From positions 230,422-294,421 of the forward strand of contig JAQGDQ010002376.1 of NCBI GenBank assembly GCA_030141605.1: DNA of 64,000 bases. Direction: 5' to 3'. This DNA is from Tubiluchus corallicola (lineage: Eukaryota > Animalia > Priapulida). How positions within the stretch are numbered: the stretch's first letter is position 1; every line of letters begins with the position of its first letter. Positions 3,001-59,822 of this stretch are shown here, piece by piece. The position numbers and the translations under genes are program-made. The notes below the pieces were generated by a model that ran no database searches, was not told the origin of the DNA, and saw only the letters and a list, made by a program, of their open reading frames with translations.

Positions 3001-6000
3001 AACTAAGTCAGAATTTCAAGAGAAAAAGAATGATCAGTTAGAATTGGAAGCGTTCGTTGACTGTTTGGAATGTGGCCGTAAGCTGCATCAAATCTGCTCC
3101 CTGCATTTTCCACAGATCTGGTCTGGGGGGTAAGTTACTTCTGTGTGTAACTCATCTATTTTGTTTTGTTCTCGTACTGGCTAGGTTTCCACTGGTAAAT
3201 CTCATAACTAAAAGTAGTGAATTCTTAAATTCCAAGAAGAGTACACAATTTTTGTTTTCAGTTAGCAGTAGTGTATAGTAACTAAAAGTATTTGTAGTCT
3301 TAGTCAACTAAAATTTATAATTTCACTTTGTTGAAGATATTTTTGTGGGTTGAAAAATACTTTGATATTCATGTTTTACAGTTGTGATCATTTTGATCAA
3401 ACAATTACTAATTAAATGAATTTTCCAGATTTGTCTGCTCCTTGTGCTTGAAAGCAGCAGGACGATCCCGGAAAGAGAACAAGTTTAATTCAAGACGTAA
3501 GTTCTGTGGTGAACCGACTAATGTCATAATGACATAGTTATGACAATAACTATAACTTATAATGATATCACGATAGAAATTATTTTTGAAATATTACTTC
3601 TATCTAATAAAATGGTGAATTAAATGCTAATTTTCTACGACTGCTTTCAAGTTCACCAGTTAATTAAACATTCTTTTTGTAGGAACTTTGTGTATAAGAA
3701 ACTTTTCATAACTTCTTGTTGCTTGGTTTTACTTCATTATTTAGAGCAAGATGCTTTTTATTGATCCCATTTATACCTATGTCTGTTTTATGAAGTTATT
3801 GATAGATAAATGCGGTTGCATCACAAATATTCAAATTTCTCTTATCCTGTAGTTGCTTTCCGTTTCAGCAGTTAGCAATTTATCTCTTCTGTTTTTGCAT
3901 AGGTCTGCAGAGTACTCAATTGGGTACATTTATTGAGAATCGGGTGAACAAATTCCTGAAAGCCAAAGGCTGCGTCGGTAGCGAAGTGACCATTCGGGTC
4001 GTTTGCAGTTCTGACAAGGTTGTTGAAGTTAAACCAGGGATGAAAGCAAAGTAGGTTATGCAGCATTTCCTTTTTGAGAAGCCTGTTTGCTTGTTTGACT
4101 TTTTACTTTGTTGAAGAATACTATAAGTAGTTTTACAATGATTGTGTTTAATTCTTCATATTTTAATAAATGCATTCAGTGCACTAACAGGTTGATTACC
4201 AGGAATGAATACATTATTATTATTGCTCCATTAGTGTCTTGAATATATGATCACTTTATGAATGGAAAACTTTAAAAAGCACTGTGTAAAACAAATTTGT
4301 ATTTCTTGGTATTAAACAATTTTTGACATGAGAACGATAAAAAATTTTATATTGTTTGAAAATTGCAATGTGTCATTTTCTGTTGCAAAATATTGCTTTG
4401 GCAAGCAGTAATTCGTATTATTAACATTCCCTTATTATTTTGCTACAGATACACTGATGAAAACCTTTTTTCTGATTCATTTCCGTATCGGGCAAAAGCT
4501 CTTTTTGCTTTTGAAGAGATTGATGGAACCGAGGTGTGTTTCTTCGGAATGCACGTACAAGAGTATGGGCCAGATGCTCCACAGCCTAACACACGGTAAA
4601 AAAAACTTGAACATTTTTGTTAAGCGATGTGAAGAAACATATTGTGTAATATATTGTGTGCACTGTATACTGCAACTTTTATTTTGTACTGACAATATAT
4701 TGAAGTTGCATCTCCTAACTAAGTTTTTATTTTTCATAGGCGTGTCTATATATCATATTTAGACAGTGTGCATTTCTTCCGACCAAGGGAATATAGAACA
4801 GCCGTGTACCATGAAATTTTAATTGGCTACATTGAATTCGTTCGGAAGCTCGGGTATGTTTGTTATATTGTTTATTTTTCTCGGTAAATCCGTACATAGA
4901 TTAATTGGTTGGAGAATGAAAATCTGAATTTGTATCAAACTTTGGCAGATACCTATGGGCACACATTTGGGCATGTCCACCAAGCGAAGGCGATGATTAC
5001 ATCTTTCATTGCCATCCACCTGAGCAGAAGATTCCCAAACCAAAACGTCTACAAGAATGGTATAAGAAGATGTTAGACAAATGCAAAGAAGAGCAAGTCA
5101 TAATTGATTTTATGGTAATTACCTTAATGATGATAGTAATACTTGAATGTGTATATCTAAATGCCGCTTATGTTGTTACTGAAAGCCATCATTACATTAA
5201 CGTCCGTTACTTCGCTTGCAGTTAATACCATTATAAATGTATTTTTTAAACTGATGATACCAGTGACACACTAAATACATTTATAACTTATAGGATATCT
5301 ACAGTGATTGTCAACAAAACAACATGACCACCGCCACCGATTTGCCCTACTTCGAGGGTGACTTCTGGCCCAATGTGCTCGAAGAGAGCATTAAGGAGCT
5401 AGATCAGGAGGAGGAAGAGAAACGGCGACGCGAGGAGGCAGAAGCGCTGGAAGCTGCTGCCACTGCTGCTCAGGTGATGGAAAACAATGGGGAATCAAAT
5501 GATGGCATCGATATGATGGAGGTAAGGCAGTCAGTTTAAATATTGGTGTCTATATAGTTGTGTTCGAATTCTGCATATTGAAAATTTTGCATATAACTTG
5601 TCTGATACATATAACATGTGTTCAATATGTATTCTGAATTTTAGCCTCTGAATCCCAATGGCAAGAAGAAAGGCAAGGGCTCAAAGAAGAAGTCAAGTAA
5701 ATCTAAATCCAGTCAAAGGAAATCTAGTAAGAAGAGTCTAAGCACAGTTGGATGTGACCTGTCCCAGAAGGTTTCCAGTGTAATGCTCAAACATAAGGAG
5801 GTAAAACACTACATGTAAATGCATGAAAATGGGAAATCTCACATTTGGTTTTAAAAAATTTTGGAAGCTTTATCAATTTTGTGTGTGCATTTGTTTTTGA
5901 AGTTAGATTTTGAAACTAAATATGTATAACTACCTAATTTTTGTGCCAAACATTATTCAGCCACAAGAATTTTTTATATTATTCAAAATTTCTTCTCGCT

Positions 6001-9000
6001 TTATAGGTGTTCTTCGTTATTCGGTTGCAACCATTAGACTGGGATCCTAGCCCCATAGTTGACCCTGATCCTTTAATTTCGTGTGATCTGATGGATGGTC
6101 GTGATGCCTTTCTCACCGTTGCTCGTGAGAAACATCTAGAATTTTCGTCTCTTCGCCGTGCCAAATATTCAACAATAGCAATGTTGTACGAGTTGCATAC
6201 TCAGGGGCAGGATCGTTTTGTTTACACATGTAACAGCTGCCGAGTGTCATGTGAAACGCGTTACCACTGTGTTGTATGCGAGGTAATAATGTTTGCACTG
6301 CACATTGTTTGTTTTCTTGTGTTTATTATTTTTTCGGCTGTTTGCAAATGAACCAAATGTGGTCTGACTCACTGAGTCAACTAAAACCTGACAGTTATCC
6401 GTACTTTTAATATTCATGGGTGATTTAGAGTGTCATACATTGGGGATGTTTATCTATACATACGTTTTTAATTTAGGCGTTATTGTGTGTTTATTACAGG
6501 ACTTTGACTTGTGTGTACAGTGTTACCGAACTTCAGGACATGAGCACAAAATGGAAAGACTTGGGCTGGATTTAGATGATGGTCAGAATGCAAGTGGTGA
6601 CAAAGCCAATGGTCAAGACTCACGCTATCAATCAATCATGCGTTGTATTGAGTCACTGGTGCACGCTTGTCAATGTCGGGACGCCAACTGTCGCAATACT
6701 AGCTGCAAGAAGATGAGACGAGTTGTGACGCATACTAATTCGTGTAAAAAGAAGGCTACCGGTGCTTGTAATATATGTAAACAGTTGATTGCCTTGTGTT
6801 ATTATCATGCTAAATTATGTAGAGTAGAAAGATGTCCTGTGCTCTTCTGCCCTAATATCAAGATAAAATTAAGACTACAGCAGCAACAGCAAAGAATGCA
6901 GCAGGTAATGTACTTAAAATTAAATAGCGGTAGAAAGTATTTTTAATGACGAAAATAATGAAATGTACAATTGACAGTAAAGGCAAAGCGTTATTCATAT
7001 TTGTGATATATTTACACAGCAGTGAACAGTTTTGTAGTATAGCAGTAATGTGTCTCAAAAACTTATATTCTACTCCACAATATGTTTAGAATGAATAAAT
7101 ATAATAAATGAGAATAGAGCAAGAATTGTGATAATCGTCTTTGGTAACTGATGTTGAAAACTTCCGACTTTAGTGTACATTTGAGAAAGTGTGTGATTTA
7201 AAATTTATGCCTTGATATTTGGTATGCATTGCTTATACTCAAATGTTTTTCTATTGTACTATGCTTTACAAATTCGCCTTATTCCATCACTGTTGGCATA
7301 TAACACAGCTTTGTGCTACATTTATTAGATTTGAACTTTGTGTATGACTAACTCACTTGTAACAATGCTACCACATTGTTGGTTTTATTAATACTTTGAG
7401 TGATTTTTTTTACATTTTTGTCTTCAGGAGCAACTGATGCGTCGACGGATGGCTATTATGACAAGACAGATCAGTAATAATTCGAACGACAGTGCTTCTT
7501 CCACCCCGCAGCCTTCAACGCCACAGTCGTCTCGCACTCCTGTTAATGCGCTACCACCGCACTACCAAAACAGTGCCGCAATGAAACCAGAAATGAATGG
7601 CAAACCTGGAACACCACCAGTTGGTGCCCTTCATGCTGCCGAGCAGGTACATTTTATCAACTATTTCATGAGACTAATGTAAATAATTATCTAGTGTTTT
7701 TTATTTGTATTGTGCACATTTGGTTTTTATTACCAGAATTGGTGATTTTATAACACAATTTTGAAGATTAAAATTTCCAAATGAAATCCTTTATGAAGCA
7801 CTGAGAAAACTCACCTAATTCATTGTCATCAACTAAGCAATAAACTGTAGGTACAAGTTCAATGGAAACTTATATAAAGATAGATAATACTGCAAAAGAC
7901 TAATAAATCAATTTATTTATAATATATTATAAATATTATAATAACGTTTATTATAACATTAGATTCGACAACAAGCAGCGAGACAATACATTTCTCCTAT
8001 GGGCAGTTATGGGAAAGGCGGTAGCATGGCTGATGGACCTGCGGCTTCAGTACCAGTGTCACAAGAAATGATGCGTCCACTACAACCGGGCTTTATTAAT
8101 CAACAGACTGGCATGCAACAGTCTAGTCCTTTGCGTGGCCAACTTCCTGGCATGCAGTTGTGTGTTCCATCCCAGGTGAAAACATTATAGTTACTATATA
8201 TTTTTTAAATTAATGCATTTAAGAAAATAACATTTTATCATCATAATAAAAGATGTGTCTGAACCATATAATTACTTGCAGCATCCACAACGAATGGGAC
8301 AGCCTCCTGTCATGATTAATAATCAAGATGTAGTGAATATGCAGCAGCATCAGATGCAAGGTTCACAACAAGCATTACAGCAACTGTTGACAACGCTAAA
8401 GTCACCGTCTTCAAATCAGCAGGAAGAAGTGCTGAGCATTTTAAAGTCAAATCCTGAGCTAATGGCTCAGTGCATCAAGAAGAGCAAAACAGCACAGAAA
8501 GAACAAGAGCTTGCGCAGCAAACACAACAGCAGTTTTATCAAAAATTTCAGCGTCAGTTGTCGGACGGGCATTCGGCACAGATGTGCGGGCAGCCACCAA
8601 CAGTAAGCATGAATTCGATGTCTATGGGTGGAAACCCATCAGGTGGTAAACCTGTAGCCATGAATCAGATGAGTATGGGTGGAAATCCAATGACTGTTGG
8701 CTGTAACACAGGTCAGATGGGCAGCATGCCAACCATGCTAAGTGGCAATCATATGAGCATTGCATCGAGTCAGCACAGTTTGATATGTAAACCAATGATG
8801 TGTGCAAGCGATAAACCATCACAATTAATGAGTAACAACAACCCACATATGATGTCGTTGAATGCTCATCAGACGCTTGGAACACGTGCGAGCATGAACG
8901 GAAATCAAATGGGAGGTAAACCGGGGCAAATGTTAAATCTCCGAGGTAGTTCTACTTTGGATGCACAAAATCAGCAACAACTTGCACATCAGCAGTGGTT

Positions 9001-9484
9001 AAAACAGCAGCAACAGCAGCATATGATGATGAATATGCCCCGTCAAAGAGTGCCAGCTTCCCATCAATTTCACCAGCCTCCAGCACCTCCGTATCCACAA
9101 GGAGGGCGACAGATGCATCAGCGAGCGGTAAATCCCCATTTATTAGCGCATGGACAGCCGCCACATCCAAGCCCTTCATCACAGCAGCTGATGCACCAAG
9201 TTTGCTCGCCACCTCCTAATCACACGCCCCCTGTGGCATCACCTCGCCAGCGACCAATGATGACACCATCTCCACGGCAACAACTCTCTCAGTCACCTCA
9301 TTTACCGACACATTCTCCTCATCCGGGTTTGATGGGTGCGGAGCAACAAATAGGTGGTGAAACGGTGCCTCTTCCTCAATCACAACAAAACCCTAGTGAG
9401 CAACTAGGAGTACCACCTGCATATGACAATTCGTCGCTTGCGATGCAGGATCAGTTATCACAGTTTGTAGTGGACCACTTGTAG
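1..9484 (+). CDS. CREBBP: CREB-binding protein / p300 histone acetyltransferase, 3' part (5' end lies outside the window)
   Basis: Phase-consistent GT-AG exons: 1-133, 404-561, 2200(or 2170)-2280, 2995-3129, 3429-3496, 3903-4050, 4449-4595, 4740-4853, 4949-5114, 5294-5521, 5645-5800, 6007-6282, 6500-6904, 7428-7646, 7963-8175, 8282-9484 (TAG). Motifs: bromodomain end ([16 protein letters not shown]), RING/PHD, HAT ([44 protein letters not shown]), Lys-rich autoinhibitory loop, ZZ, TAZ2 ([13 protein letters not shown]), NCBD ([13 protein letters not shown]...LKSNPELMA). Confidence 0.97.
2170..2280 (+). CDS. CREBBP: CBP RING-region exon with tandem alternative 3' splice sites (starts at 2170 or 2200)
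   Basis: AAG|T at 2167-2170 and CAG|A at 2197-2200 are 30 nt apart and in frame. The long form reads [22 protein letters not shown]. Donor AC|GTGAGT at 2280/2281. Confidence 0.8.
8282..9484 (+). CDS. CREBBP: CBP terminal exon (NCBD plus Q/P/M-rich tail)
   Basis: Acceptor TTGCAG ends at 8281; about 400 codons to TAG at 9482-9484; contains the NCBD/IBiD motif and ends [11 protein letters not shown]. Confidence 0.93.
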   Translation, partial: HPQRMGQPPVMINNQDVVNMQQHQMQGSQQALQQLLTTLKSPSSNQQEEVLSILKSNPELMAQCIKKSKTAQKEQELAQQTQQQFYQKFQRQLSDGHSAQMCGQPPTVSMNSMSMGGNPSGGKPVAMNQMSMGGNPMTVGCNTGQMGSMPTMLSGNHMSIASSQHSLICKPMMCASDKPSQLMSNNNPHMMSLNAHQTLGTRASMNGNQMGGKPGQMLNLRGSSTLDAQNQQQLAHQQWLKQQQQQHMMMNMPRQRVPASHQFHQPPAPPYPQGGRQMHQRAVNPHLLAHGQPPHPSPSSQQLMHQVCSPPPNHTPPVASPRQRPMMTPSPRQQLSQSPHLPTHSPHPGLMGAEQQIGGETVPLPQSQQNPSEQLGVPPAYDNSSLAMQDQLSQFVVDHL

Positions 9485-13810: not shown

Positions 13811-21294
<7,484 letters not shown>

Positions 21295-21729: not shown

Positions 21730-21983
<254 letters not shown>

Positions 21984-23017
21984 TAGCTGTCTCTATGACC
22001 TAACCTTCTTTACCTATTGCTCTATAAATTCTTTACCCATCAGATTTTCGGGGATATACTTTATTCGAAGCTGTTAACTATGTCATATATTCAGTTTATC
22101 TGTCATTTGTAAAGCTAACTATTCCAGCAAGCGATATCCATATGAATTTTTTAAATGAACTGATAAAGTAGCATCGTAGTAAAACGAGGAAAACAACTGC
22201 ATGAGTTGCCACAGTGCGTGCTTGGTTGTAAACTTAAGCAGTGCTGGGTCTATTTAGTAAACAAATTTAACTGGTAGCCATCTAAAAATTGTCTGCTACT
22301 TTATCTGTGATGCCGATGTGATAGCATTGCTTCTGAGTGTGGGACTTGGCTTGCATGATAAAAACACGTGCAAAACAACAGAGACTGAAAACTATAGCGT
22401 GACATAGGTAAACAGTTTATTGCCCAACATTACATATCTATGAGTTTTATATACATAAATTACAAAATCATTACTGAACATGATAGCTGTCAGCAAAATT
22501 TAGCAGCAAAACTACTTGTCCTGAGACACTCGTACATACTAAGCTTAAATAATCCATTAACTTTTAAGTTTTTAATTTCATTTTATACTTTGTCTTTGAG
22601 GTTAGACACCATGAGTTTTCGTGTTATATATAGGCCCTAGTCACGAAATAGGCTTAAAAGACGTGCATCTGCGAATTTAAATAAATATGAGTAATTCATT
22701 AAACGCTGTATTTCTGAATCATACAAATGAATTACAAATAAATAAGGAAGTATTAATATAATTTAATATAATTACGTGTACATTGTTAAAAACTATAGGG
22801 ACATATCAAAATACGATAAGACAATGCATTAGACGTGCTCAGTCATATAAATATATTATTATAGTCCTTATAATATATATGCTACATATGGATATAAGCA
22901 AAAAAGAAACAAAACAAACCAAAAAACGAGAATAACATTTATTAACAAAATCACTGGGATAATTAGGTAGCCAATACTTTGATTAAGGTACTTACACGTG
23001 CTATCAAAAAACAACAA

Positions 23018-24969
23018 TCAGGCCGAAACTATTTCATTTTTGTTTATTTTATCATAAACATTTTGAACAAAAGTCATATAGCTCATGAGATTTCTCATCA
23101 TTTGATACGTTCGAAAATCAAATTCTGATGGGTTGACCGGACTCTTGGGAGTAACATCAGCGTCAAACTTCTGCACTACTTGCCCCGTAATGGCTTCCGA
23201 GGTGAAAAATACCAAGGCGATCAAATTCCTAATCTCATCTACGACGTAGACTAGAGAATAATCAAACCCCTCATAAGACTCAGCCGCTTCAGTCACAAAT
23301 TCCAAGATGTTTGTGGTGTTTTTATAAACGAGATCCACCACTTCGAAAGCCTATAAATAAAAATTCATTTAGTTTAGGTATTCTTGTAAAACTTAGTGAT
23401 ACGCGCAGATTATGGCCTGTGATTACATTGCTAAAATAATTAATTTTGAAATAATTTTAAAACTTAAAAAAATTAAAAGAAATAACTTCTATTTTTATAT
23501 TTTCTATGTTTTCTTAGTTTAAGCTTTTTTGAACTTGCCCTATTTTGTTTGATGAATATGAGTATATGTATACTACAAAACAACTAACAAAAAGCCGTAG
23601 TTGGCTAAAGGTAAGCACATATGTAGGCATTTTTAAATACAGTATTGAGATAACCGCCGTCGATACGAATATTTTTCGCGCCAATAAGAACAAACAAGCC
23701 TACATTTCTAGCCAATGCAGTCTATCGAAAATATTAATTTTGTACATTAATCAATCAACATACGCTCCAGTTTGAATCAATGTCTGGCGGAGATGGAAAT
23801 CCTTCGTCGGCGATCAGTCCTGGGTACAAATCATATCCTGGATGAGATTCAAATCCCAACTGAAAAAATGATTTTTAATTATACACAGACAACCCAGAGT
23901 TAATTTTGTCGCTCCTCTTGCGAGAGATAGCTCTCTACACATCAGTGTAGTTGCAATCTGAAACTTAATTTTGACCTGTTATTGTTCTCGCGTGATTGCT
24001 GTGACAGATATTGTCATTGATCACGCCGCTTTTCAGACTTTCTAGTCACAAAACGATGAACGTGCACAAGTGTTTCAAACGTAAGAAAACCACAAGTTCT
24101 AATGCCCAAATTTAACTTGTAGATAGGCCTACTCAATTTCTAACCTTTAGACATCACAGTGAAAGTTTAGCAGTTAAAATAAATATGGACTATGGATGGT
24201 AGGCGTATTCTGTATATATAATATTGATACAATTTGTTACTTTTGTTTTCGTGCGTTATAGTTTTTTGAGTTATAGACGTTGAGCTTATGTGTATGCAAC
24301 ATTATGTATGCTCGCTTACTTCTGCGACTGTTTTTGATGTTTGTATTTTTAACTTGTGTGAGTTGCCATTTATTGTCCTGCGTCGCTATTTAACGTGGAA
24401 AAAGGTCACACCTTCATTGCTGACATAATGGTATTCTAGATTTCAGTAATAATTGTACTTCATATATCTGTCTAACAATCTGCCTTACTGTCTAAGACTA
24501 TAGAATGATTTATGTATGATCTAATATGTGACTATATATGGTCGATAAAGTATAAAGTAAAATATATACAAAATATGTGTACCTTTGGCAGAATTTCGTT
24601 CGAGACTTCTTCAGCTTTGAACCGAACAGCTTGAGCCCGCATGATCACAGTTTCACACTGGGTTAGTTTCTTGACTGTCGCAGGCATTTTGAAATGATGA
24701 GTCACGTGGTTATGCCAATGATTACAGTCCGGCACCTTCTCGTCATTTTTTAGCATGAAAACTGTCAACAATACCACCAAGACGGTAGAGATGTTAAAGT
24801 CGAATTTAAACAAATTTTTAAAGGTTTTAAATCCATTTCTCGATATTTTCTTCAGCCTCACAATAAAGCGCATCATTTTCGTGTCTTTCGTTGTAGTTGG
24901 CTCTTCCATTTCAACTGTTACAACACTGCCACGAGCAACTTGTTCTTCTGCAGTTTTATCCCCCGACAT
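23018..24969 (-). CDS. Orphan 3-exon gene, 271 aa; putative signal-anchored or secreted long-chain four-helix-bundle cytokine-like protein
   Basis: Exons 24969-24583 (AAG|GTAC), 23859-23764 (CAG|TTG...AGC|GTATG) and 23350-23018 (TAG|GCT...TGA), all phase 0, join into one open frame. TATATAA about 170 nt upstream; AATAAA at 22943-22938 and 22421-22416. Basic stretch followed by hydrophobic ISTVLVVLLTVFML. The gene model is well supported; the product call is inference. Confidence 0.8.
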
Positions 24970-25139
24970 GTTTCTTGTTTCTCATATTCAAACGGAACCT
25001 TTGTCAAATTAAAAATTATTAAACCTGGTCAAAAAATAACTATAGACGTTGATACTTGCACTGATATTATCGACAACATTATAGTCACAAAGAAATCAGA
25101 ATGACGAAATAATGATGCAACCTCAGCGCAAAGACTGGC

Positions 25140-25146
25140 TTATATA
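25140..25146 (-). promoter_or_regulatory. TATA box of the orphan cytokine-like gene
   Basis: GCC-TATATAA-GCC on the minus strand about 170 nt upstream of the ATG at 24969. Confidence 0.6.
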
Positions 25147-25558
25147 GGCATTGGTCGGCTTTATCATTTATGTAGGTGGGGGCATAATGAGTATTATCAG
25201 GTGTTATGTCAACTGATGACAATCTTCCAGCATTGCACATGCACATTTACACAGAAGGGATTTATCAGTTTTGAGTTGACTATCTAGATCTAGGAATAGG
25301 CGATATGACGTTCTCTCGCGGGTAGCGCTAAATCATTAAATTGTTTGAACTAGCTATATTCACGATAGAAATAAAAGCTGGATTGTTGTCATCTATAATA
25401 GTCAACTTTATAAAAAAATTTAATATCAGAAATTATAGACCTGCATATAGTAACGCAGACTATTTCAAAAATTCAAACCTATTAAACACCCAATGATTTA
25501 CAGTAAAAAGCAGAAAATGTGGTCTTCAGAAATTTCATCATTTTATATACCATAACGA

Positions 25559-25560
<2 letters not shown>

Positions 25561-25635
<75 letters not shown>
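25561..25635. repeat. (TA)n microsatellite
   Basis: Perfect TA run of about 75 bp. Confidence 0.95.
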
Positions 25636-25638
<3 letters not shown>

Positions 25639-27619
25639 GTAATCTGGGAAGAATAAATGTAAATTTCAATCAGTCACATGAAAAGGTCTCATAATCTGGA
25701 GATGTACACAAAACAAATAAAAGGTTTACAGTGAGAGTTTAATCCCCGCTGCCTGGTTTGCGAAGCAAACTTTTCTGTATTATGAAGTTCAATGTAAGTC
25801 ACATTAAACCTGACTATAATAACGAAGATGCTTCGGCACATTGTGTTTTTGGCGTTGAAGCTAAATAGTCACCATTTATTTACATCAACGTAGTTGTTTA
25901 TGCTAAGTTTTTACAACATTTACATCAAACCATAAAGTATTTTTTACTTTGCCGGTGCATTTTTTGGTACTGATCCACTAGAGAAAGTGACTGAACTGTT
26001 TTCTAGTGGAAAGGAACTTTTTGGAGTTCACAAAACTGATACGATTCGCCACTTGAAAATTTGTGCTGCTTTTAGTGCTCTCTTCGTAAGTGTGCGTACG
26101 TATAGTAATATTTTACTTTAAATTCAAAGTTTTCAGATTATTGTAAATGCCATTTGCCACGGAAAGCGAAAAAGTTTATTAGATGTAGATTTTAAAGCAC
26201 AATAAACTATTTTAAATTACATACGTATGTAATACTTATACTGTAAACGTGTACGAACTATCAATTGAATTTTAACGTTCGTGTAGGAATTTAAGTTTAT
26301 AAGCTTATCGCGTTACTACTAATAAGTGTATAATATTCTTACCTTGCAGCTGCACGTGCAGTATTCTTGTTACTGAAGATATGTGCTTTCTGGCGCTTGA
26401 TGTGTGTCAATAATACCTGTGCTTCGCTATGCCTGTGCCTTATGAATACTTAGGTTGGTGTAAAGGGAAAACCCAACATCAACAACCTTGCCCGGGCTTT
26501 ACTCATCCCCGTCTTATTGTACGGGGATAACCTGTGGCTAATTTAAGTCACTTAAATGGGGAAAGCATTCCTTCCACTAACAGAAGTGCCTACGCTATCG
26601 TTTCCAAAATCTCCATCGGCTACTGAACAAGCATTGTTAATTTAGCACTTTAGTTTAGTAATTATTATAATTATGTACAGATATATTAATGCAAGTGCAG
26701 AATGGAAGTACAGGTTTATATTTTAATGAATTATTCAGTTATGCTCCTACAAGACGCCTTTAAGTTGACGATTTTAAATTGTATAAAAAGTTTTTTAGAT
26801 TAAATTTATTCAAATACTTGATCTTTTGCAAACAGTGTTGTAATAATTGTTTATATTCACTACCAGTGTCAGCTGCTTTTATCAAAGCACTAAACGGTGT
26901 ACACTTTGCCAGAAGTATTTACTTCCGAGAAAAAAACTGCCATTTCCCAGAACTGGTAAATAAAATGCACGGAAAATGTAATGAATCATAGATTTACAAC
27001 GTTAGAACGATAAGGTAGTGAATCATGTTGAAGTTTGCATAAACGCAATAGTGAGTACTCACGGCGAGTAATTGATTATCAACTTTAAGCAGCACAAAGC
27101 AGGGCAACTGATTTGTAGGGAAACTGCAAATTAATATCACTCTTGGATAGTACTTTTACAGTGATTCCGAATCATTTCTTGATGTTTAGAGATGTTCATG
27201 CATCTGAATGTGACTGTGATATCTCTGCCTGTTCAGTATTTTATCTCAGAGGCTTATCTTGCTATTGAACTTGCTAGCGAAGTAGCATAATTCATTGGGC
27301 ATATGTCGACCTCAAGATATTAACAAATCTGTATCGTTCGCAAAGCTTTGTATTTTGATTTTTAATAATTATTATTTATCAAGTATTATCTTAAATCTTA
27401 TGAAAACCAAGTGAATTAAAGTGATTATGTGCAGCATGTGATACAATGCAAATTACGCCGAGAGAAAAGTTTCATCCTAAAAAGTAGTAATCTTAAATTG
27501 TAGCAATGAATTTTCAAAACAAACCCAAAACGAAATACAAAAAAACAAGATTGACCCTAAACAATACGTTATTTGAAATGAATCTGATTTTTGTTAGTCA
27601 TTAATCAAAGCCCTGTAGA

Positions 27620-27912
27620 TAACTAAAGAAGAACAGAAAGAGAAAACCCGAAAGAGAGAGAGGGAGGAGATACAAAGAGTGAAAAAGTGAGGGGATGACA
27701 GAGAGAAAGGGAAAGGGAGGGATGCCGGGTAGGGAAAGAACAAAACGGGTGAGAGAATACGAATACGAATAAGAAACTGCTTTCTCAGCATAATTTGCAT
27801 TGTATCATTTGCTACACATAATCACTTCAAATTCAATTGAGAGGGCGGGCTGAGAAGTGAGATGGAAAGAGAGAAGAAAGGGAGGGAAAGAGACAAAGAC
27901 AAAGGGAAAGAC

Positions 27913-27958
<46 letters not shown>

Positions 27959-28085
27959 GAATAAGGGCGATAGAACGGGGGAGAAAGTGAAGAAAAGAGG
28001 GAGATGAAAAGAGGGAGAAGATGAGAGGGATAAGATGGGAAATGGGAAAGAACTACAAGGGAGAACCAGACAGAGAAAGAGAAAT
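27620..28085. repeat. Purine-rich GA low-complexity tract including (GA)n
   Basis: Two strongly A/G-biased blocks, with (GA)n at about 27921-27950. Confidence 0.8.
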
Positions 28086-28140
28086 CGAAAGCTTTATTCC
28101 ACTAAGACAGCAAACTTTTAGCAGTTAAAAAGTAACCGTG

Positions 28141-28316
28141 ATTTTCCTGTTAAGAAATCTTTCTGGTAAATGCTTTTTCTGTGAAACGAGGTTTCTGGGG
28201 AAAATATTTTCCGGGAAAAAAGTTTTCTGGCAAAAAGTTTTTTCTGGCAAATATCTTTTCTGGGAAGTTACTGTTTCTCGGAAATGGTTTTTCTGTGAAA
28301 AAAACTTCTGGCAAAC
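28141..28316. repeat. Degenerate 15-17 bp-period minisatellite (TTTTCTGGNAAA core), probably TE-derived
   Basis: About 10 copies of a TTTC(T/C)NNNAAA-like unit. Confidence 0.7.
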
Positions 28317-30056
28317 GAACCTAAACCAACTAAAACGTTTTATACTGCGTTACTGACCGTCTTGTGCCTGGGTCCAATCCTTCAGTTTCTCCCATCGGAG
28401 CGGGATGTACCTATTTGTGGGCCTTAGGCCAACAAATCAATGGGCCCTAAATTGTACTTATCGTGCAGAGGCCCCATTCTCCGAGCACTGTACTTATTGT
28501 ACAGGGGCCCTTATGGTTTCGAATATATCATACAATGAAATAACCGGTGTAGATTTGAAACAAGAGTTATTTACAGGCACGGTGGATGACAAATTAGTTT
28601 CAGTGGGACACCAGGTACCCGTGGGCCCTAGGGCCAGTGACTTATTATGCCCTTGGAAAATCCGGCTCTATCGCCCAATCTACATGCCTTGATTAAGATT
28701 TTATAATTTTAATCATGATAATATGCAAACATGTCATTTTTAAAACAAATAATATAAGAAAGTGCTCAGTAGTCTTGATGCTTTGGTGTATGAGGTAGAC
28801 TGAGATACACAACCACACACTGAGATAAAATTTATTGTTCAAGCCAAATGTATCAGCGCAAAATTGCATTACATATGCGCACTGTAACATAGAAAAAAAC
28901 ATATTTTAAAGCTTAATATTATTATAAAATTTGAAAAAATATCAGTACATATAATACGACCTAGCATAAAAAACTTTGCATCAGTTTGCAAGCTGTCATG
29001 TTGATAAATTCAGAAATAGGAATCTCAGGTCTCTCTCTTTACCTCTGACCTAGTCTTAGCTTTCCTGAAAAAAATACGCGCAATAAAATACCAGTCGATG
29101 AGCGCAACATCGAGATAATATAATTTGGTGAATAAAATTTAGTATTTGTTAGTGATGCAGATATTAATATTTATTTCTTACACGATATATACAGTACTGG
29201 CATGTCATAGATAAGCATTCTGACACGGGCAACCAGTGTTACCATTTCTTATGGCTGACAGGACAAATTCATCCCAGCGAGAAATGAAATAATAGTTCGA
29301 TCCATTATGAAGCCATTGCACATCAATTTCAATTCAATTCAATTCAATTTATTTTCTCATTAGCAGTTTAAAATTCCTCTTAATTATGCACATCAGCATT
29401 GTATACCAGGTATAAAATCACTGACATCGAATGGCCTCATTGATTCAGCAGGTAAACGGACACAAACGGACAGCATCTGTAGAAAGTTTTTCATCATCCT
29501 AGCATTGAATCCAGAAGACTTGACATCCGAAATACGAGGGAACAAACCGACCCGGAAAGCAACCAATCAAACAAGGGCGAGGACTCATTGCGATATCAAG
29601 ACAATCAGCTGAAAATAAAGTCGCTAGTTCAATAAAAATAACTAATGCAGTACATTGCAGTACAAAATCAAATTATCTCACAGACGTTAAAAGGTGAATC
29701 TCCGGAAGCAGACTTACAAGTAAAATTACGGAATTACTATAAGTAAAACTACAGAATTACTACAAATATTTCAAACCAGCACATGAAAGATAAAAATAAA
29801 TCACTAATTTCTTATTTTATTTACAAAGATATTAAGCGTGGAGGAAATTCTTGCATCAATTTTTAAATCATTCGACGCTTTTGATCCTTTACACTGAAAT
29901 GTGTGAAAATCGCATTTAGCAGCTCTAATCGTTGGTAAGGAGTTTCAAAGATTTACAGTAACTAAGTTATCTCATTTGTCATTGTACGACTGTTTAATTG
30001 CTTGCAAAAAATAAATGATAATTCTTTTTATAAATTATTATTTATAAATGCATTAG

Positions 30057-36132: not shown

Positions 36133-39100
36133 ATGATCACTTCTGCTGCTGGGATCATTTCATTGCTGGATGAAAAAGAGGCAGACCTGAAGCTCTATGC
36201 CCTCCAGAAGTTGAATATACTCGTTAGTGATTTCTGGGCAGAAATATCCGAAGTGATTACAAAAATAGAAGTGTTGTATGAAGATGATGCTTTTAAACAT
36301 CGAAATTTGGCTGCACTGGTTGCATCCAAAGTTTATTATCATCTCGGGTCTTTTGAAGACTCGTTAACGTACGCACTTGGAGCAGCAGCATTGTTTGATG
36401 TTAATTCATCGTCAGAGTATGTGGAAACAATTATAGCCAAATGTATTGATCACTATACAAAACTACGAGTTCAAAATGCAGAAACAAGTGAACAGGTAGA
36501 AATCGATTCACGGCTAGAGGCTGTTGTCAACAAAATGTTTCAGAGATGCTTTGATGATGGTAAATACAAACAAGCGGTAGGAATTGCCCTGGAAACTCGT
36601 CGTCTTGACGTGTTTCAGGATGCCATAAATAAATCTAACGATGTATCTGGCATGTTATCGTATGCCCTTGGAGTATGCATGACATTGATACCTAATCGCC
36701 ATTTTCGCAACACTGTCTTAAGAGTTCTGGTAGAACTGTACAGTGGTTTGAAAACTCCAGACTATATAAGTGTATGCCAATGTTTGATATTTCTTGATGA
36801 TCCGGTTTCTGTTGCAGAAATATTGACAAAACTTGTGAAGGAAACTGACAACGGGACGCTGCTTGCTTATCAAATTGCTTTTGACTTGTACGAAAGTGCT
36901 ACACAAGAATTTCTCAATCGAGTTCACCAAGCTTTGCGTGGCACTGTAGCGCTGCCTGGATCCGAAGTTGCAACTGAAGACGAGGAAATGGAGACAGATG
37001 AGAAATCCGAGGAACGCAAAGAAACAGTAGATGCTGTTGAAACTGCAGAGACAGAAGAAGATAAAGAAACAAAAAGCCGTTTAGACAAGCTTACTTCCAT
37101 TCTCACCGGAGAAATTTCGATAGGTCTTCATTTGCAGTTTTTGATACGAAATAATAAATCAGATTTGTTAATTTTGAAAAACACAAAAGATGCTGTGCGT
37201 AATTCAGTTTGTCATACAGCGACAGTAATATGCAATTCTTTTATGCATTGTGGTACAACTAGTGATACATTTCTGAGGGACAGTTTAGAGTGGCTAGCAC
37301 GAGCCACGAATTGGGCAAAATTCACTGCAACTGCAAGTTTAGGTGTCATTCACAAGGGTCATGAGAAGGAAGCATTGAGTTTAATGGCAACTTACCTGCC
37401 TAAAGAAACTGGCCCTGGTAGTGCTTATTCTGAAGGGGGTGGATTATATGCACTAGGATTGATTCATGCTAATCATGGAGGTAAAATGATAGACTATTTA
37501 TTAACTCAACTAAAAGAAGCTACAACTGACATGGTTCGCCATGGTGCATGTCTGGGTTTGGGCCTTGCTGCAATGGGCACGGCACGCCAAGATGTCTATG
37601 ATCAGCTGAAGATGAATTTATTGCAAGACGATGCTGTGACTGGTGAGGCCGCTGGGCTAGCTATGGGTATCGTTATGCTTGGCTCAAGGTCACCAACAGC
37701 CATCGAGGACATGGTTTCTTATGCACAAGAAACGCAGCATGAGAAAATTATTCGTGGATTAGCAATTGGAATAGCTTTAGTGATGTACGGGCGTTTAGAA
37801 GAAGCAGATGCTCTTATTGAAAGTCTATCGTTAGATAAAGACCCTATTTTAAGGCGATCAGCCATGTATACAGTAGCCATGGCATACTGTGGAACTGGGA
37901 ATAACAGTGCTATACGAAGATTACTGCATGTCGCGGTTAGTGATGTAAATGATGATGTTCGACGAGCAGCTGTGGAATCTTTAGGATTTTTACTATTTAG
38001 GACTCCAGAACAAGTACCCAATGTAGTCTCTTTGTTGTCAGAATCATACAATCCACATGTAAGATATGGGGCTGCCATAGCATTAGGAATATCTTGTGCA
38101 GGAACAGGCCAGAAAGATGCTATTGCTTTGCTAGAACCCATGGCAAACGATACAGTAAACTACGTTCGACAAGGGGTGCTTATTGCTTCGGCCTTGATTT
38201 TGATCCAGCAGAATGAGGTTACCTGTCCAAAAGTGACATACTTCAGACAACTTTACACCAAAGTCATTAATGATAAACATGATGACGTCATGGCTAAATT
38301 TGGTGCTATATTAGCACAGGGCATACTTGATGCTGGTGGGCGAAATACTACCATTTCTTTACAGTCAAGAACTGGCCACACACACATGACATCTGTTGTG
38401 GGCATGTTAGTGTTCTTGCAGTTCTGGTTTTGGTTTCCTCTTGCACATTTTCTGGCTCTAGCATTTACGCCCACTTGTCTCATTGGTTTGAATGCAAACA
38501 TGGCCATGCCAAAGATTGAGTTCAAATCTGGTGCAAAGCCGTCGACGTATGCTTATCCACCACCTCTAGAAGAAAAGAAAGAAAAAGAGAAGGAGAAAGT
38601 TTCAACAGCAATACTTAGTATTACTGCAAAAGCCAAAAAGAAAGAATTAGAAAGAGAGCGTCATCGCAGCCAAGATAAAATGGAAGTAGATGAACCAAAA
38701 AAAGATGAAGTAGAGAAGGATTCAAAAGAGAAAGATTCAAAACAAAAGGATGCAAAAGAAAAGAAGGGTGCTAAAGCAGAGAGCAAGACCAAGTCGTCCA
38801 GCAAAGAAGCTGCCAACAAAGAAGCCATGACAAGCAAGGAAAGCACAAGTAAGGAGGAAGAAGTAGAAAAACTAGAAGAGAAAAAAGAACCGGAACCCAA
38901 TTTTGAAATGTTGTCAAATCCGGCTCGTGTCATGCGGGCACAGTTGAAAGTAATTAGCATGCCTGAAGGTACAAGGTACAGACCACTGAAACCGGTCTCT
39001 ACCGGAGGAGTGATTATGTTGCGCAATCTAAAAACCGAAGTACCAGAGGAAATTATAGAGGAAGTTGTTGCACATGGACCTAAAGTGGAGCAGGAAGAAG

Positions 39101-39144
39101 CTGAACCAGAACCACCCGAACCTTTTGAATATGACGAGGATTGA
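36133..39144 (+). CDS. PSMD1: 26S proteasome non-ATPase regulatory subunit 1 (Rpn2), single coding exon, 1003 aa
   Basis: Starts [14 protein letters not shown] (true ATG 36133, not the GTG at 36118). PC repeats ([38 protein letters not shown]); C-terminal [10 protein letters not shown] Rpn13-binding tail; uninterrupted ORF. Confidence 0.97.
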
Positions 39145-41334: not shown

Positions 41335-44300
41335 TTATTTAACATCAGCATCAAAATCTTGCACTAATAACTTTGTTTCTTCTGTACCATTTCTTGACCC
41401 AACAGCACAGACTAATTTCGTTTGACTTGCTCTGAAACAAAAATAAGTTGCTATCAACTAACGTCAAACAAAATAATAGTCCTGTTTCTAGTACAGCTAT
41501 AACGATACAATACTTATGATACATCTGAGTTAACATTTGCAGCCTTTATAAAAGATTAGATGAAGTTGTTGACAATGAAGGTTAAAATAATTCAATTAAC
41601 TGCTTGATTTTTATTCATTACTTGTGTAATGAGTAAGCTATTGTTTGCATAGAAAGCCAAGAAAACGTAAAACATGTCAATACTTTGAGTTTAAAAGGTG
41701 TTTGTGCATTTTCTGGCTCACGTTTGCCATTTCACAAGCTTATACGCAACAATGTAATTAGCCTACTACTGCTTTGGCTGCTAGCAATGCTTGTGTCAAG
41801 CCAACAACTTTTCAATGTACTCATTGATACGTTCTACAGCTACAGCTTCAATTACTTCACGTCAACTTTTATTAGCATACGATTGCCATGTTACGAGTGC
41901 ACTTCAAGATTCAACTTTAACTAAAACATTAGCTTTTTGAATGTGCCTAATATTAGCAATAAGGAGTCGGAAACATATTGTCTTGTCTAGACAGGCTGTG
42001 TTGTCTTGGCTAACAAACAAGAACTGATAACACAGTAAAAGTTTACTATCACCTAGTATTTTATTATGTTTACATAATTGAACTACATTAAAGTCGTGTT
42101 CAAAGTGCTTACTTATTAATTCTATAGCCACTACACTCCTATTTAGGGTTCAAACAATGTTTGTCATTTTTTATACTACTCTGTACTATTTCAATTCATG
42201 TTTAAAACTATATTTTTTGCAATGAATTATTGTCATTTCCAGGAATAAAAAATCTCATACAAGACCATATATTAAAAGTATAATTGCTATTATCAACTTG
42301 TTCTGCATATATCGCATCACACATATTTTGGGAGTCAATCTTAGTATGTTGTTTTTGTAATTTTCAGTTAGCTTACCTTATCCTCCACACAACACCACCA
42401 CTGCCACCACTATCTAAAGACACCAGATTTCGCAGGAATTCACCAGTCTTCAAATCCCACAGTTTTACGGTACCATCATCAGAAGACGTGATAACAAACT
42501 TGCTATTAAACTGCAAACAAGTGACCGCACTCTGATGTTTGTTGGGGCCTGAAAAGTGTTTACACATCTTGAATGTTATATTATCAATCAAGCAAGTGTG
42601 ACAGTCACAAAAGAATGTAGAATATAACTTGCCCCAGATAGAGGAAGATTAAGCAGATTGCTATCTAGGCTAACTATGTGCCTAAGTCAAACAAAAAATA
42701 CTGAGATTGTTTAATACAGAATATAAAAAGAAAAACATAACATGAACTTTTTGATAGAAAGAACACAGAATTATTAAATTCATAATTCAAATATCATCTG
42801 CGATTCGAGTCTAGACTCCAGAATCACTGCCAATTTCTTTAGATATATTACTCAAGTTTGGTATTAAAAATTCAATGAATTTCAGCTTGCCCCACCTTTA
42901 ACTGGCAAACTACAGTAGCTGAACATAGTAGTAAATAGTGGTAAAGTACTACAGTAGCAAGTAGTAATAGCAGCAGCACCAGTAGAAACCAGTAGTAGAA
43001 CACATTAAGGTAAGAGACCTAGTTTACCTGTTAATGTTTGCAAGCATTGCCCTGTCACGATGTCCCACACTTTGACTGTCGAATCAGCATTCCCCGACAC
43101 AAGTATGTTGTCCTTGAGCTCCATGCCACTAGTTAACGACTGATGTCCCATCAGCGTGTGTAAACAGTTACCCGTTTCAATGTCCCAAACACGTATCGAT
43201 GTATCCAGTGAACCGCTGACTACGTGAATGCCATCAAACTAAAATGTAAACATCAATCAATGATGTGAGAGACAAGAATAATTTACATAAACATTAAAAT
43301 ACGATACCAGTAGTACTAACAGATGCCATGTACTGTACTCCTATTCTTGTAATGGATGCATTCGTGTGCAGTGAAAACAAAGCGAAGAATTAGTTAACAA
43401 AGTACTTTTAAAATTACACTGATATAATAAAGATAATAACTGCAACTACCTAAATTTCCCAGGATTTCAATGTTATGTGATGAGAGAAAGTGGTACTGAG
43501 TGGGAGATTTTGTTTTTGTGTTTTGACCATTTACAACAGATGAAATACACCATTGCAGACTCCTGTTTCTGGCAAGATGCGACTTGACAACATATAAATT
43601 GTTAACAGTTAAAAGTACATAGTTACATAAAATTAATTTTTTACATGAAATTCATTTTTTTTCAAATTATGAAGTTAAAGTCAATGGCTCTTAATTTGTA
43701 ATTTATTTTGTTATATTAGCTGTAAAAGACATTTGCTTACTCGATTCTTGCTACTATTACGATCGATTTTTTAAAAATGCCATACCTGTAAGGAATAGAC
43801 ACGATTCGTATGTCCGGTCAACGTGTGTAGGCACTCTTCCGAATCCGGATTCCAAACTTTAACAGTGTAATCATACGCCCCACTAACAACCCTCTTGCCA
43901 TCATACTGGACGCATCGGACAGCAGCAACGTGACCCATCAGCACGTGCAAACACTCACCACTGTCAACGTCCCAGACTCTAAGTGTTGCATCCCGTGATC
44001 CACTCACTACTCTGAAATGCAGAAAGATATAACATATTGAATGCATTTGGAAAATGATAATATAATGCCATACACACTGAAAAGCAATAAAAATCTGAAC
44101 ACCTGCTTTCTCTAGATCTAGAATCTGGGTTACTGAACATTAAATTAACATAATAGTCAAACCTCTTTACACCGCCTACTTTGAGAATGCAAAAACGTTA
44201 TAGCGAGTCTGGCATTATAACAAGGTGCATTCATGCATACGTATTTATGCAAATACGGATATTTTGTTTTACTAAAATTTGGGTCCTGAGGGAGGTTGGC

Positions 44301-47300
44301 ATTACAAAAGGAGCGTTACTCCTTTTGTAATGCCAAACGAGGTTTGACTGTAAAAGTCACTGGGTAGATTAAAAGTACATTAAAAACTGAAAAAAGCTTA
44401 CTTATTCCCATGTAGATGCATGCATCGTACAGTTGACGTGTGCCCGTACAGAGTGTGCGTACACTGTCCAGTGTCGGCATTCCAAACCTTTAGTGTGCGG
44501 TCAGTTGAACCACTGATTATAATGTTACCCGACATCTGTGATGACCAAACACCGCCAGTGTGACCAACAAGTGTGCGTAAACACTAGAAAAAGTTGGATG
44601 TTGTATTATGTTGTTACAACTATTAAATTAAAACAGGCTTTCCTAATTTGTTACACAAAAGTTTTTGAACTTTGCTTCATAGGTCTGTATGTACAACGGA
44701 CACAATGAAACTGTAGGCAAAAGTGTGACTTAGCATTTTGTTTGTTATTCTATACATTGTTGTATGTTTACATTTGTATTGATGGAACATTTATGAAACA
44801 ATAAATAAGATATGTGTCCAAAGAAACTTCGCTTACCTTTCCGGTGGTTGCTGACCACACCTTGAGCGTGTTGTCATCCGATCCGCTGACAACCCGGTTA
44901 CCTGAGAACTGCAGACAGGTGATAACATGATCATCGTGTCCCTTCAACACCTAGAAAAGCACAAATATTTTTCCAATATTAAATAAAAAAATCTTTAGTT
45001 TTGCTTACCAAAACATATGGGCAGGATAGAAACTGAAATGTAGAATATCGTAATAGAATAAACTGACAACTCAAGGTTTTTTTGTAAGGCAAACATAACC
45101 GAAACTGAGCCCTAATTTAAACCTGGACTTTTGGATTCTAAATCCAATGCCAAGATAAGAAATTGAAATAGCCAGAACTAACTTTAGACTACAAGTCCAA
45201 TATCAGCTAGGTTCGTTCTCAGCTTTTCACATTTTTTTATTTGAACAAGTCTGGTTAAAAAAATCTCAACTAATAGCTCATACCATTATTAAGTGACAAT
45301 GTTATAAAAATTTAAAGATTATAAATAACAGCGCACGTTCTTAACTTATACCTTGGGCGTGCGAATTTGACCGACTCGCCAATTCATTTCAATCTGATGC
45401 TGTCGCATGTAAGCACTTTTCCAAGGACTTCGATGAGTGCCAGAGACTAATCTTCGTTTCCTAGATAAAAACAAAGCAAGGAAATCTGTAAAAAAAAACG
45501 ACCTGAGACAAATGAAATATTTGCGACAGAATTTCTTCATCAAGATGGATATAAAAATCAAGACTTAGACAACTTAATTCTCCGCACCAATTTAAAAGCT
45601 TAAAGGAAGTATTATCTATCAACATAAAAACTGGAACAATAAATGAAAGATGAAAATAAAACAGCAAAATACTTTTGAAATTTTATGCACACAATTGATA
45701 AGAACATCTCATAGTTCTAAGAGTTTCAGGACAAAATCGCATTCTAAAAATATCTCTGTCGTTGGGTATACACTTTTGTTTGCTCTACTAAAGAGTCCCA
45801 TGAAGCAGGTATGCTCTACTTAGAATAGTTTAAATGGTTTCAGGTGTTTGAGCTAATACAGTAGAAAATGACAACCCCATTATTAGCAGTTTCATTTACG
45901 GAAAGGGGTGACAAGAGATTACTAACACAAGTGTAATGTTCAGTGGATGCACGTGCATGTAATATGTAAGTTTTACTGTAATATGTAATATGCAAGTATA
46001 ACAGGCTATGCCATCACAAACACCGTGACAAAACAAGATTCTAATGTATATGAAATTCAAGAAACTAGGCGCAAGGCAAAAATTTTGCCACAAGCGCAAT
46101 GTAAAAGTGAATGATTGGAAGTCAATCGAGTTTGACTGAAACCATGCTGTCACTAGCTTATTTTTAATAGCAAACATTCTTAATCATGTTTCTATGCTTC
46201 ATTCGTATAAGAACAAAAAGCCAATGTCGTGCTCTGTATAAAACTGCATACATACTTGTTAAACACGACTGCCTCGTCTATTCCAGCTTCTCGGCACTTC
46301 TCTCGCCAAAGTAGATTATCCTCGGCTAACACACGCCAATAACGACATGTCTGAGCCGCATGTAAAAGTGACCGAGGCTCCAAAAACGACAACACGTACA
46401 GGGCAAGCTAAAAAGGTCAACATTATGTTATGCATTAATTTCACTCTGTATCATTATCTATTAACTATTACTGATCTATTAATTATTACTGACTGTAAGC
46501 AGTTAGTTTTTCAACAGCAAACACAACTTATCTAAGCATAATAGTCTTATAATTTTCCAAAGTTCAAAAAAATTTAAGCAATTTTGGAAAAATGGCCCGC
46601 AGGCATTAAATTTTATATGAAAATGAATGAATGAATGTCTCTGTCGTGAGTGTAAAACTTAAATGAGCCATGGTCAATAAATTGCGACAGCAAATTGCAG
46701 ACTATTTTTCTAAAACGAACCAGAAAGTTTACAAAAAAGCTAAAACAAAAGAATATTTACACGGTTTTCCTCTCTCGTTCAAATGACTAATTATGATGCA
46801 TTAGGTGAAATTGCAATGCACAAATGCTGGTCATTTCCAAGTTTTTTTTAAATATTAGGAGTACACAATAATTAACATTAGCAACTACAAATAGTGCATG
46901 AAAAACTATTAGCTTAGAGCAGTGGTTCTTAACCTGGATTCGATCGAACCCTAGGGGTTCGGTGAGTCGATCTCAGGGGTTCAGCAGAGTGGCCAAGGTG
47001 AAGCCATGCATATCTGAACTGGTCTCTCAAAGGCAACAGCAGAAGTCACACTGATTTGCAGGTATGTAATTTGTTGTGAGTTTATGCATTGTGTTGGTTT
47101 TGTTCTTTGAATAAGGTGATGTTCATGCACGGCTCATTTTGTGTACCAGTAAAAAACATATCTATGTCTTGAATTTGAAAAAAATCATATTTTATTTTTC
47201 ACTAAAGAAGGGTTCGGTGAATGCGCATATGAAACTGGTGGGGTTCGGTACCTCCAACAAGGTTAAGAACCACTGGCTTAGAGGCATACCAACTCCTGTT

Positions 47301-48340
47301 AGTTCAACAGCAATTCAACTAGATGGCAGAATCAGTGCTCTAAACTTTGGTGTTGACCATAAAATGTGCATAAAATGGCAACAGAACTGACAAGTAAGAG
47401 GAAGCATTATAAGCTAGTGCTCTTACAAATTACCATTTCTGACGCAGCAAAAATTTGTATCAAAACTCAAATTATGTGAATATTAGAATTACTTGTTAAC
47501 CTAAGAAATATGTTAACATGAGAAATGAAAAACAGTTAATTACCTCTTTTGGCAATAAGCTGATAAAATCCCTCTGAAATTGTGGCTCAATAACAGTCAT
47601 GATATGTCGTACCTGTGTTGGCTCACATAATTCTATTAGTTGATCTAACGCTAGCAAGCGCTCAGCATTACTCCATGACTAAAAGTAAATACAAAAAATA
47701 TTTAGCTCTTACAATAAAGAAATCATCACCTTCGTAAAAGAATCAAGAGACTACATTTTTTCAGATTCAGATGACCACAAGCTTTCTCAAACATACAACT
47801 TTATCTACACACAACGATTAACTATGAGCAATTTTTTTCCATTTCTAAATTTGCGATCAGTATGAATCTCAAAGTAAACTGACCTGAAATACTTTTAGCC
47901 ACTCGTTCATCTCCACTGGTGGATTAGATTTGGACGGGATGCGTCGTCGTGGCGTTAATGAGGCAGATGTAGCGCCTGTTGGTAAACCAAAAGCCTGATG
48001 ACGGTCTGCCATCACTCCCTCTTGTGGTGGGTAATGATAACTAGCTGACCTGAAATTTTCGTTTAAAAACGCAGTAATATTGCTGAATTTAAACTGGCAC
48101 TTAGCGGACTCCTACTTTTCTTTAAAATGAAAGGTAGCAATTTTGCTATAAAAATACGTATAAGATACGACTGTACCACACTTACTGGGAATAGAACGGT
48201 GGTAGGCTATCGCTAAATTGGCACATTTTTCTGGTGGAAGAAGAATTCGGTGTTCCAGTTGGGGAATCGCCCGACTTGCGCTTGATCTTGGCAGCACAGT
48301 TCTCTGTGGTAGGCTCATCACGTTCTGACTTTCTTTTTGA
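41335..48340 (-). CDS. FBXW7: F-box/WD repeat-containing protein 7, common exons (dimerisation domain, F-box, WD40)
   Basis: Phase-consistent exons 48340-48186, 48049-47884, 47678-47544, 46407-46256, 45460-45352, 44950-44837, 44583-44402, 44011-43786, 43238-43028, 42548-42377, 41431-41335 (TAA). Motifs [20 protein letters not shown] and [12 protein letters not shown]; phosphodegron-binding arginines intact ([24 protein letters not shown]); ends [21 protein letters not shown]. Confidence 0.97.
46920..47275 (+). mobile_element. Non-autonomous hAT (Buster/Charlie-type) element, 356 bp, in an FBXW7 intron
   Basis: Perfect 16-bp TIRs CAGTGGTTCTTAACCT / AGGTTAAGAACCACTG; perfect 8-bp TSD GCTTAGAG (46912-46919, 47276-47283); retains a transposase-like C-terminal remnant ...[14 protein letters not shown]. 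Confidence 0.92.
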
Positions 48341-59100: not shown

Positions 59101-59576
59101 CATACGATCCTTTCATTTTTTACACACTTCACCACACTGCAAGTCATAATCGCAAGCGCTCACTTACCAACACGTGTACTCAAGAAACAATGGTTGTGGT
59201 AGGACGAAAACCTAGCTCATTATCACAGGTAACTCTCTAAGACAAGCCATCATCAACAGTAGGGACATCCGAGTGATGACGTACATCTTCTATGAGGTAT
59301 ATCCAGCCACAACCAATAAGATGCATAAAACTTACACAAGTATTGAACCCAGACAGTCAAGAAATATTCACAAGTGACCACTTGGCTATGCAGCTTGCCC
59401 CAAAATACAGTGCATTAGTTTGAATGCACAACAAGATGTAATCATCTACATGTATTAGATCAATTTTCCATATTTTTATACGCTTATTTCAGTGCAGAAA
59501 GCAAACAACAAAATCTCTTACCAATTTGCGCTGCCTGATTATCTTGGTGCAGAAAGCAAACAACAAAATCACTTAC

Positions 59577-59822
59577 CAATTTGCGCTGCCTGATTTTTTC
59601 TGTATGTTCATCGACTATAGTGTTCTGTTTAGCTGCCGCTATTTCATCAGCTTCTATGTCGCTTATGTCACTCTGCTCTCTCTCGCCAATACTATTATCA
59701 TTATCATCGCCATCATCATCATCAGTATCACTGTCTCCGTTGTCTGAGGCGCAAGTAGTAGCCATTGTGTTCTTAAGGTGTAATAAAGTCACTGCACTGG
59801 TGGTTTCCAAAAGTGGCGTTGT
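59577..59822 (-). CDS. FBXW7: Acidic 5' exon (82 codons), probably of the long FBXW7 isoform
   Basis: TTTTTACAG|ACA...TTG|GTAAGT, phase 0/0; encodes SDNGDSDTDDDDGDDNDNSIGEREQSDISDIEADE...IRQRKL, acidic like the Fbw7-alpha N-terminus. Confidence 0.7.

Follow-up and report, generated by a model that had tools for sequence, protein, structure and literature searches.

According to published surveys, invertebrates widely possess the receptors, JAK and STAT, yet an IL-6-type ligand is reported from vertebrates and insects only, and a gene in the priapulid Tubiluchus corallicola raises the question of whether such a ligand exists in one more phylum. The gene lies on the minus strand of a 64,000-nucleotide stretch of contig JAQGDQ010002376.1 (assembly GCA_030141605.1, positions 230,422 to 294,421; hereafter the window), and was flagged in an earlier note, made from the letters alone, as a candidate JAK/STAT cytokine. 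We consider it probable that the gene encodes a long-chain class I helical cytokine with an internal signal-anchor, which would be displayed at the cell surface, released from a stalk and signal through a Domeless/gp130-type receptor and JAK/STAT. The gene model, which includes the part covered by a single relative, P0001, is as follows.

24969-24583 (387 nt), 23859-23764 (96 nt) and 23350-23018 (333 nt), minus: candidate cytokine gene, three coding exons, 271 codons plus stop
24583..24969, minus: exon 1, coding for residues 1-129; in order, an acidic N-terminus, a basic patch, a hydrophobic segment, a stalk with His and Cys, and predicted helix A; open reading frame from the first ATG past an in-frame stop
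23860..24582, minus: predicted intron 1, 723 nt, phase 0, GT-AG, immediately after helix A
23764..23859, minus: exon 2, coding for residues 130-161, which form the long Pro/Gly AB loop and the opening turn of helix B and include the conserved Trp160
23351..23763, minus: intron 2, 413 nt, phase 0, GT-AG; P0001 collinear across junction 2
23018..23350, minus: exon 3, residues 162-271 plus stop; helices B and C, long CD loop, helix D
22938..22943, minus: candidate polyadenylation signal, ~75 nt past the stop; weak, such words being common in AT-rich DNA

The spliced 271-residue product with two phase-0 introns put forward in the earlier note is borne out from the sequence, the introns being GT-AG, and the frame of the product is the coding frame. 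Codon usage, scored with a table trained on the neighboring PSMD1 gene, favors frame 0 in all three exons, with exon 3 ranking 7th and the exon 1 frame 21st among 202 open frames of at least 60 residues; within exon 1, residues 33-75 score weakest, and codons 1-32 score as coding (0.44, a value inflated by composition). The GC content is 0.41, 0.47 and 0.39 in exons 1, 2 and 3 and 0.34 and 0.27 in introns 1 and 2. By simple scores built for this analysis, the acceptors fall at the 97.8th (intron 1) and 94.3rd (intron 2) percentiles of AGs in the window and the donors at the 92nd (exon 1) and 88th percentiles of GTs. Met1 is the first possible start, with an in-frame stop four codons before it, and an untranslated exon may lie further upstream, given the well-scoring acceptors at 25024 and 24998. 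Six AU-rich pentamers lie further downstream of the candidate polyadenylation signal.

An exhaustive HMMER search over 1.84 billion representatives with exon 3 as query matched a single protein, P0001 (133 residues, E 3.6e-50), a singleton from a 1047-nt Logan contig. P0001 aligns with residues 140-268 (99 of 130 identical, with one extra residue at junction 2), sharing 79% identity with exon 3 and 14 of the 21 compared positions of exon 2. It is collinear across junction 2, and exons 2 and 3 are therefore contiguous coding sequence in the source of P0001. Since P0001 begins inside exon 2, it covers junction 2 but not junction 1; a homolog search with exon 1 found none, and junction 1 is one that we infer, so that only the second of the two junctions originally proposed has gained support. 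The gene is under purifying selection: P0001 shows 32 differences over 131 paired positions, and 18 of them are conservative, where simulated neutral change would yield 9.8 (P=0.003); a stop arises in 79% of the neutral simulations.

Pfam and PDB sequence searches with the exon pieces and P0001 returned no convincing match, and the Pfam Unpaired profile matched neither the single exons nor P0001 at E values up to 10. In the ESM Atlas, the first hit of exon 3 scores 0.91 (207 of 256 shared features, recognition 2420), in a database where 4-10 of 100 shuffled proteins reach 0.9. The top cluster is cardiotrophin-2-like (members Hormone_1 23%, PRF 23%, CNTF 20%), and the 10 best family-bearing hits all fall in the same clan, including IL-11, IL-6/G-CSF, LIF/OSM and IL-27 alpha clusters, an all-ten agreement that one-third of shuffled proteins also attain. 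P0001 finds the same clusters at 0.75-0.81 (recognition 1499), a lead at best. Structure prediction followed by structural search, as the earlier note had proposed, gave matches including CNTF (1cnt), CLCF1 (8d7h), IL-27 p28 (7u7n) and IL-12 p35 (1f45, 8xrp) at 3-10% identity; these cytokines share the B-C-D register with the model, but the model is of low confidence and ferritin-like proteins also aligned. Two features bear on the fold.

24589..24663, minus: predicted helix A, residues 103-127, with Cys105; AlphaFold2 (AF2) helix at 103-126 with a predicted local distance difference test (pLDDT) of ~50; apolar residues at 3-4 spacing, including two Ala
23111..23122, minus: F238-x-x-R241 at the start of helix D, a candidate site III hot spot; F238 and R241 both kept in P0001

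The low-confidence model arranges helices B, C and D as in cytokines, joining B to C by a short turn and C to D by a long loop, with helix B beginning near residue 157 and the stop codon following the third modeled helix in both the candidate and P0001. The loops span ~30 (AB, a length that depends on predicted junction 1), 6 (BC) and 18-19 (CD) residues, the helices 24-30, and the domain 163, as expected of long-chain cytokines, which have long AB and CD loops, a short BC loop, helices of ~25 residues and domains of 160-200. The long-short-long spacing noted previously is thus present in the low-confidence model. All three of these helices had been called, and all are predicted, although amphipathicity relative to shuffles is clear for B (p=0.001) and D (p=0.027) and borderline for C (p=0.10). 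Helix A is predicted at low confidence as a helix by itself, and its packing is something that we infer. The aromatic/basic start of helix D read from the sequence is indeed there, and F238, in the candidate and P0001 sequences alike, may provide the aromatic residue characteristic of site III in gp130/LIFR/Domeless ligands.

How the candidate compares with known families can be stated in these terms. With vertebrate gp130/LIFR-family cytokines it has in common the B-C-D arrangement of its predicted model, AB and CD loops that are long and a BC loop that is short, a ~163-residue domain and an aromatic-x-x-basic start of helix D, whereas an N-terminal extension of 102 residues, hydrophobic in one internal segment, sets it apart. 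Genes of that family have an intron after helix A, as does the candidate by its predicted intron 1; CNTF lacks a signal peptide, whereas the other members have cleaved ones; and FxxK is the site III motif of LIF and CNTF, which the F-x-x-R of the candidate resembles. Long-chain cytokine genes carry three phase-0 introns, one following helix A, one preceding or interrupting helix B and one following helix C, plus a phase-1 intron in the signal peptide; the candidate has two of these four positions, both in phase 0, and class I long-chain cytokines with three-exon and two-exon genes also exist. The growth hormone/prolactin/placental lactogen family (PF00103; 1f6f, 3n06 and 3mzg) has the long-chain four-helix fold and is found among the Atlas and VIA matches, but its C-terminal disulfide pair is impossible in a protein whose only Cys are Cys82 and Cys105, and its genes have five coding exons rather than three. 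TNF-family proteins are type II membrane cytokines that form β-sandwich trimers, and SCF, CSF-1 and FLT3L are short-chain helical cytokines of type I with a C-terminal anchor; what both groups would have in common with the candidate is a membrane-tethered precursor whose stalk allows for shedding. Upd2 and Upd3 have predicted anchors, for which our literature searches did not turn up confirmation.

The insect Unpaired ligands (Drosophila Upd1-3 and Aedes Upd-like) are ecdysozoan, and the candidate would be their functional equivalent; it differs in lacking the Pfam Unpaired hit, in the absence of an Upd cluster among the Atlas matches listed, and in its acidic ectodomain (12 K/R, 26 D/E). Unpaired proteins are glycosylated helical ligands of Domeless (PMC3772116, PMC7378365, bioRxiv 10.1101/2025.09.21.677592); Upd1 has an N-terminal signal sequence, and Upd2 leaves the cell by unconventional vesicle secretion (PMC8506834, PMC12148326). 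Aedes Upd-like, a recent hidden ligand confirmed by function, also has an N-terminal signal sequence (bioRxiv 10.1101/2025.09.21.677592). Site III serves tall Ig-bearing receptors, and IL-6 uses an aromatic (Trp) hot spot there; the FxxK form of LIF and CNTF does not appear in the same review (PMC7378365).

The N-terminal half holds three further elements.

24796..24873, minus: basic amphipathic segment, residues 33-58, with 8 K/R and 1 D/E; expected on the cytoplasmic side if the anchor is type II
24751..24792, minus: sole hydrophobic segment, residues 60-73, at the hydropathy peak; likely a signal-anchor, short and marginal
24664..24750, minus: residues 74-102, a His-rich stalk that includes Cys82 and the KK pair at 100-101; possible site of shedding

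These match the basic segment, 14-residue hydrophobic segment and His-rich stalk (five His in 74-102) with two Cys nearby that had been read from the sequence; the sequons NWS and NTT are likewise present, at 159 and 172, together with a third at 59 that had been overlooked. Sequon 172 is kept in P0001 and 159 is lost, and P0001 carries a further sequon in the CD loop. The hydrophobic moment of residues 33-56 is 0.72 (p=0.002). The hydrophobic segment follows an acidic N-terminal stretch of 31 residues and the basic amphipathic patch, and its only (-3,-1) cleavage site lies within it, after residue 69, with none downstream. Charge and hydropathy are distributed as in a type II signal-anchor, which would put the cytokine domain on the outside; granted that the protein is a cytokine, we regard type II topology and a cleaved or otherwise soluble form as about evenly balanced. 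A short helix at 82-93 in the stalk is predicted at low confidence (AF2); the stalk has a single KK pair and no furin site, and shedding may occur within this region. In one contig of run X1, position 24710 reads C instead of T (plus strand), which would change Asn87 in the stalk to Ser, probably an allele. A nine-codon upstream open reading frame (24956-24985, minus) starts 16 nt before Met1 and ends within the main frame, and could lower use of Met1 in favor of Met21 or Met32/33; with Met32/33 as the start, the N-terminus would come closer to a long signal peptide, or to a presequence for mitochondria.

In the mechanism that we propose, the internal signal-anchor would thread the protein into the endoplasmic reticulum, where it would be glycosylated, leaving the four-helix domain outside on the cell surface, from where cleavage in the His-rich stalk would likely release it. 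Displayed or shed, the protein would bind a Domeless/gp130-type receptor by helices A, C and D and activate JAK/STAT, as for Upd ligands (PMC3772116, bioRxiv 10.1101/2025.09.21.677592); the receptor and any immune role are putative. Three observations weigh against this proposal. Helix A, claimed to be amphipathic, is helical by prediction but has a hydrophobic moment not above that of shuffles (p=0.74); the hydrophobic segment is favorable over 14-15 residues and unfavorable over 19, which is short for a membrane span; and the upstream frame overlapping Met1, with the alternative start at Met32/33, speaks against a type II anchor. The JAK/STAT cytokine reading stands in part, supported by the Atlas clan and the low-confidence B-C-D model but not by the amphipathicity of helix A.

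Several other explanations deserve weight. The protein might be a lineage-specific type II membrane or secreted protein whose generic helical bundle is unrelated to cytokines; we consider this unlikely, as the family-bearing Atlas hits of both exon 3 and P0001 all fall in the cytokine clan, the helices are spaced long-short-long and the cytokine matches have the B-C-D register. There is a small chance that exons 2 and 3 are cytokine-like but that the 5' model is wrong, with another donor or an upstream exon supplying the N-terminus and helix A: junction 1 is unsupported by RNA or homologs, P0001 begins within exon 2, phase-0 donors after codons 36 and 78 score as well as the selected donor, and codon usage scores lowest in residues 33-75. 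However, exon 1 has no stop over 129 codons of the right frame, where a run of 74 open codons occurs at 153 of 10106 non-coding positions (chance 1.5%); it has no well-scoring phase-0 acceptor within it; the in-frame stop closely precedes Met1; a scan of 25000-30000 found no ATG-started phase-1 exons; and the other donors would remove helix A. Those two donor-like sites lie at 24861 and 24735 (minus), and use of the latter would yield an anchored form without helix A, possibly a decoy isoform. A 66-nt stop-free phase-0 AG-GT stretch in intron 1 (24320-24385, minus) is a possible cassette exon, probably by chance.

A slightly smaller chance attaches to a cytokine fold that works outside Domeless/gp130-JAK/STAT, acting perhaps as a decoy, as a cue for adhesion at the surface or on a short receptor of the CRLF3 type. 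Class I receptors include the orphan CRLF3, which occurs across eumetazoans (PMC8063046), and no STAT or NF-κB consensus sites were found in 22400-26500, but the conserved F-x-x-R resembles site III, whose role is described in PMC7378365. Very unlikely, in our view, is a start at Met32/33 that makes the basic and hydrophobic stretch a bipartite mitochondrial signal of a helical intermembrane-space protein: residues 33-56 are basic, nearly devoid of acidic residues and strongly amphipathic, and the upstream frame could favor a later start, but codons 1-32 score as coding (with composition inflating that score), a sequon is conserved and the neighbors belong to the cytokine clan. Least probable of all is a ferritin-like or Dps-like four-helix protein, an identity largely refuted by the absent C-terminal helix and metal ligands; such matches align by their N-terminal three helices (4cmy, 1-115 of 163; 2qqy, 1-115 of 139) and need a fourth helix beyond the point where the candidate and P0001 stop, and residues 103-271 contain a single His and no ExxH motif.

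If the cytokine assignment is true, it would place a helical cytokine in priapulids, an early-branching ecdysozoan lineage, and a type II anchor would add a contact-dependent or sheddable mode that is, to our knowledge, unusual for long-chain cytokines. A concrete candidate gene makes the ligand question testable in one more phylum. More tentatively, the protein may be a type II IL-6/CNTF-type long-chain cytokine that signals by contact or when shed, the first priapulid JAK/STAT ligand candidate and a bridge between Unpaired and gp130 cytokines. In one survey, IL6 was detected only in vertebrates by BLAST at a threshold of at least 30% identity, which would miss the candidate gene, and priapulids go without mention in the main text (PMC13203501). 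Leptin and IL-6-family cytokines were not identified outside jawed vertebrates according to the excerpt of PMC12284397, and that of PMC13736523 traces IL-1 to invertebrates with no mention of IL-6. Among the literature matches listed, with subscription journals thinly covered, none describes a helical cytokine from priapulids or a long-chain cytokine of type II topology.

No paralog of the candidate was found within the window, which holds these other genes.

~4360-9481, plus: 3' part of a CBP/p300 gene (Pfam HAT, ZZ, TAZ and CREB-binding hits)
~14347-21294, minus: PRPS (ribose-phosphate pyrophosphokinase) gene, beginning 1724 nt past the stop of the candidate on the same strand
36133-39144, plus: PSMD1/RPN2, intronless, a single 1003-residue frame
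~42376-46407, minus: F-box and WD40 gene, which we take to be FBXW7/archipelago-like

Because its CBP, PRPS and F-box/WD40 neighbors are split into many exons, the intronless PSMD1/RPN2 is possibly a retrocopy or a case of complete intron loss. Open frames of higher GC content, at 47872-48111, 59487-59867 and 61154-61396, are perhaps upstream exons of the F-box/WD40 gene or parts of another gene. The candidate lies between long microsatellites, of the (CA)n/(CT)n and (TA)n types, at 21747-21978 and 25561-25634.
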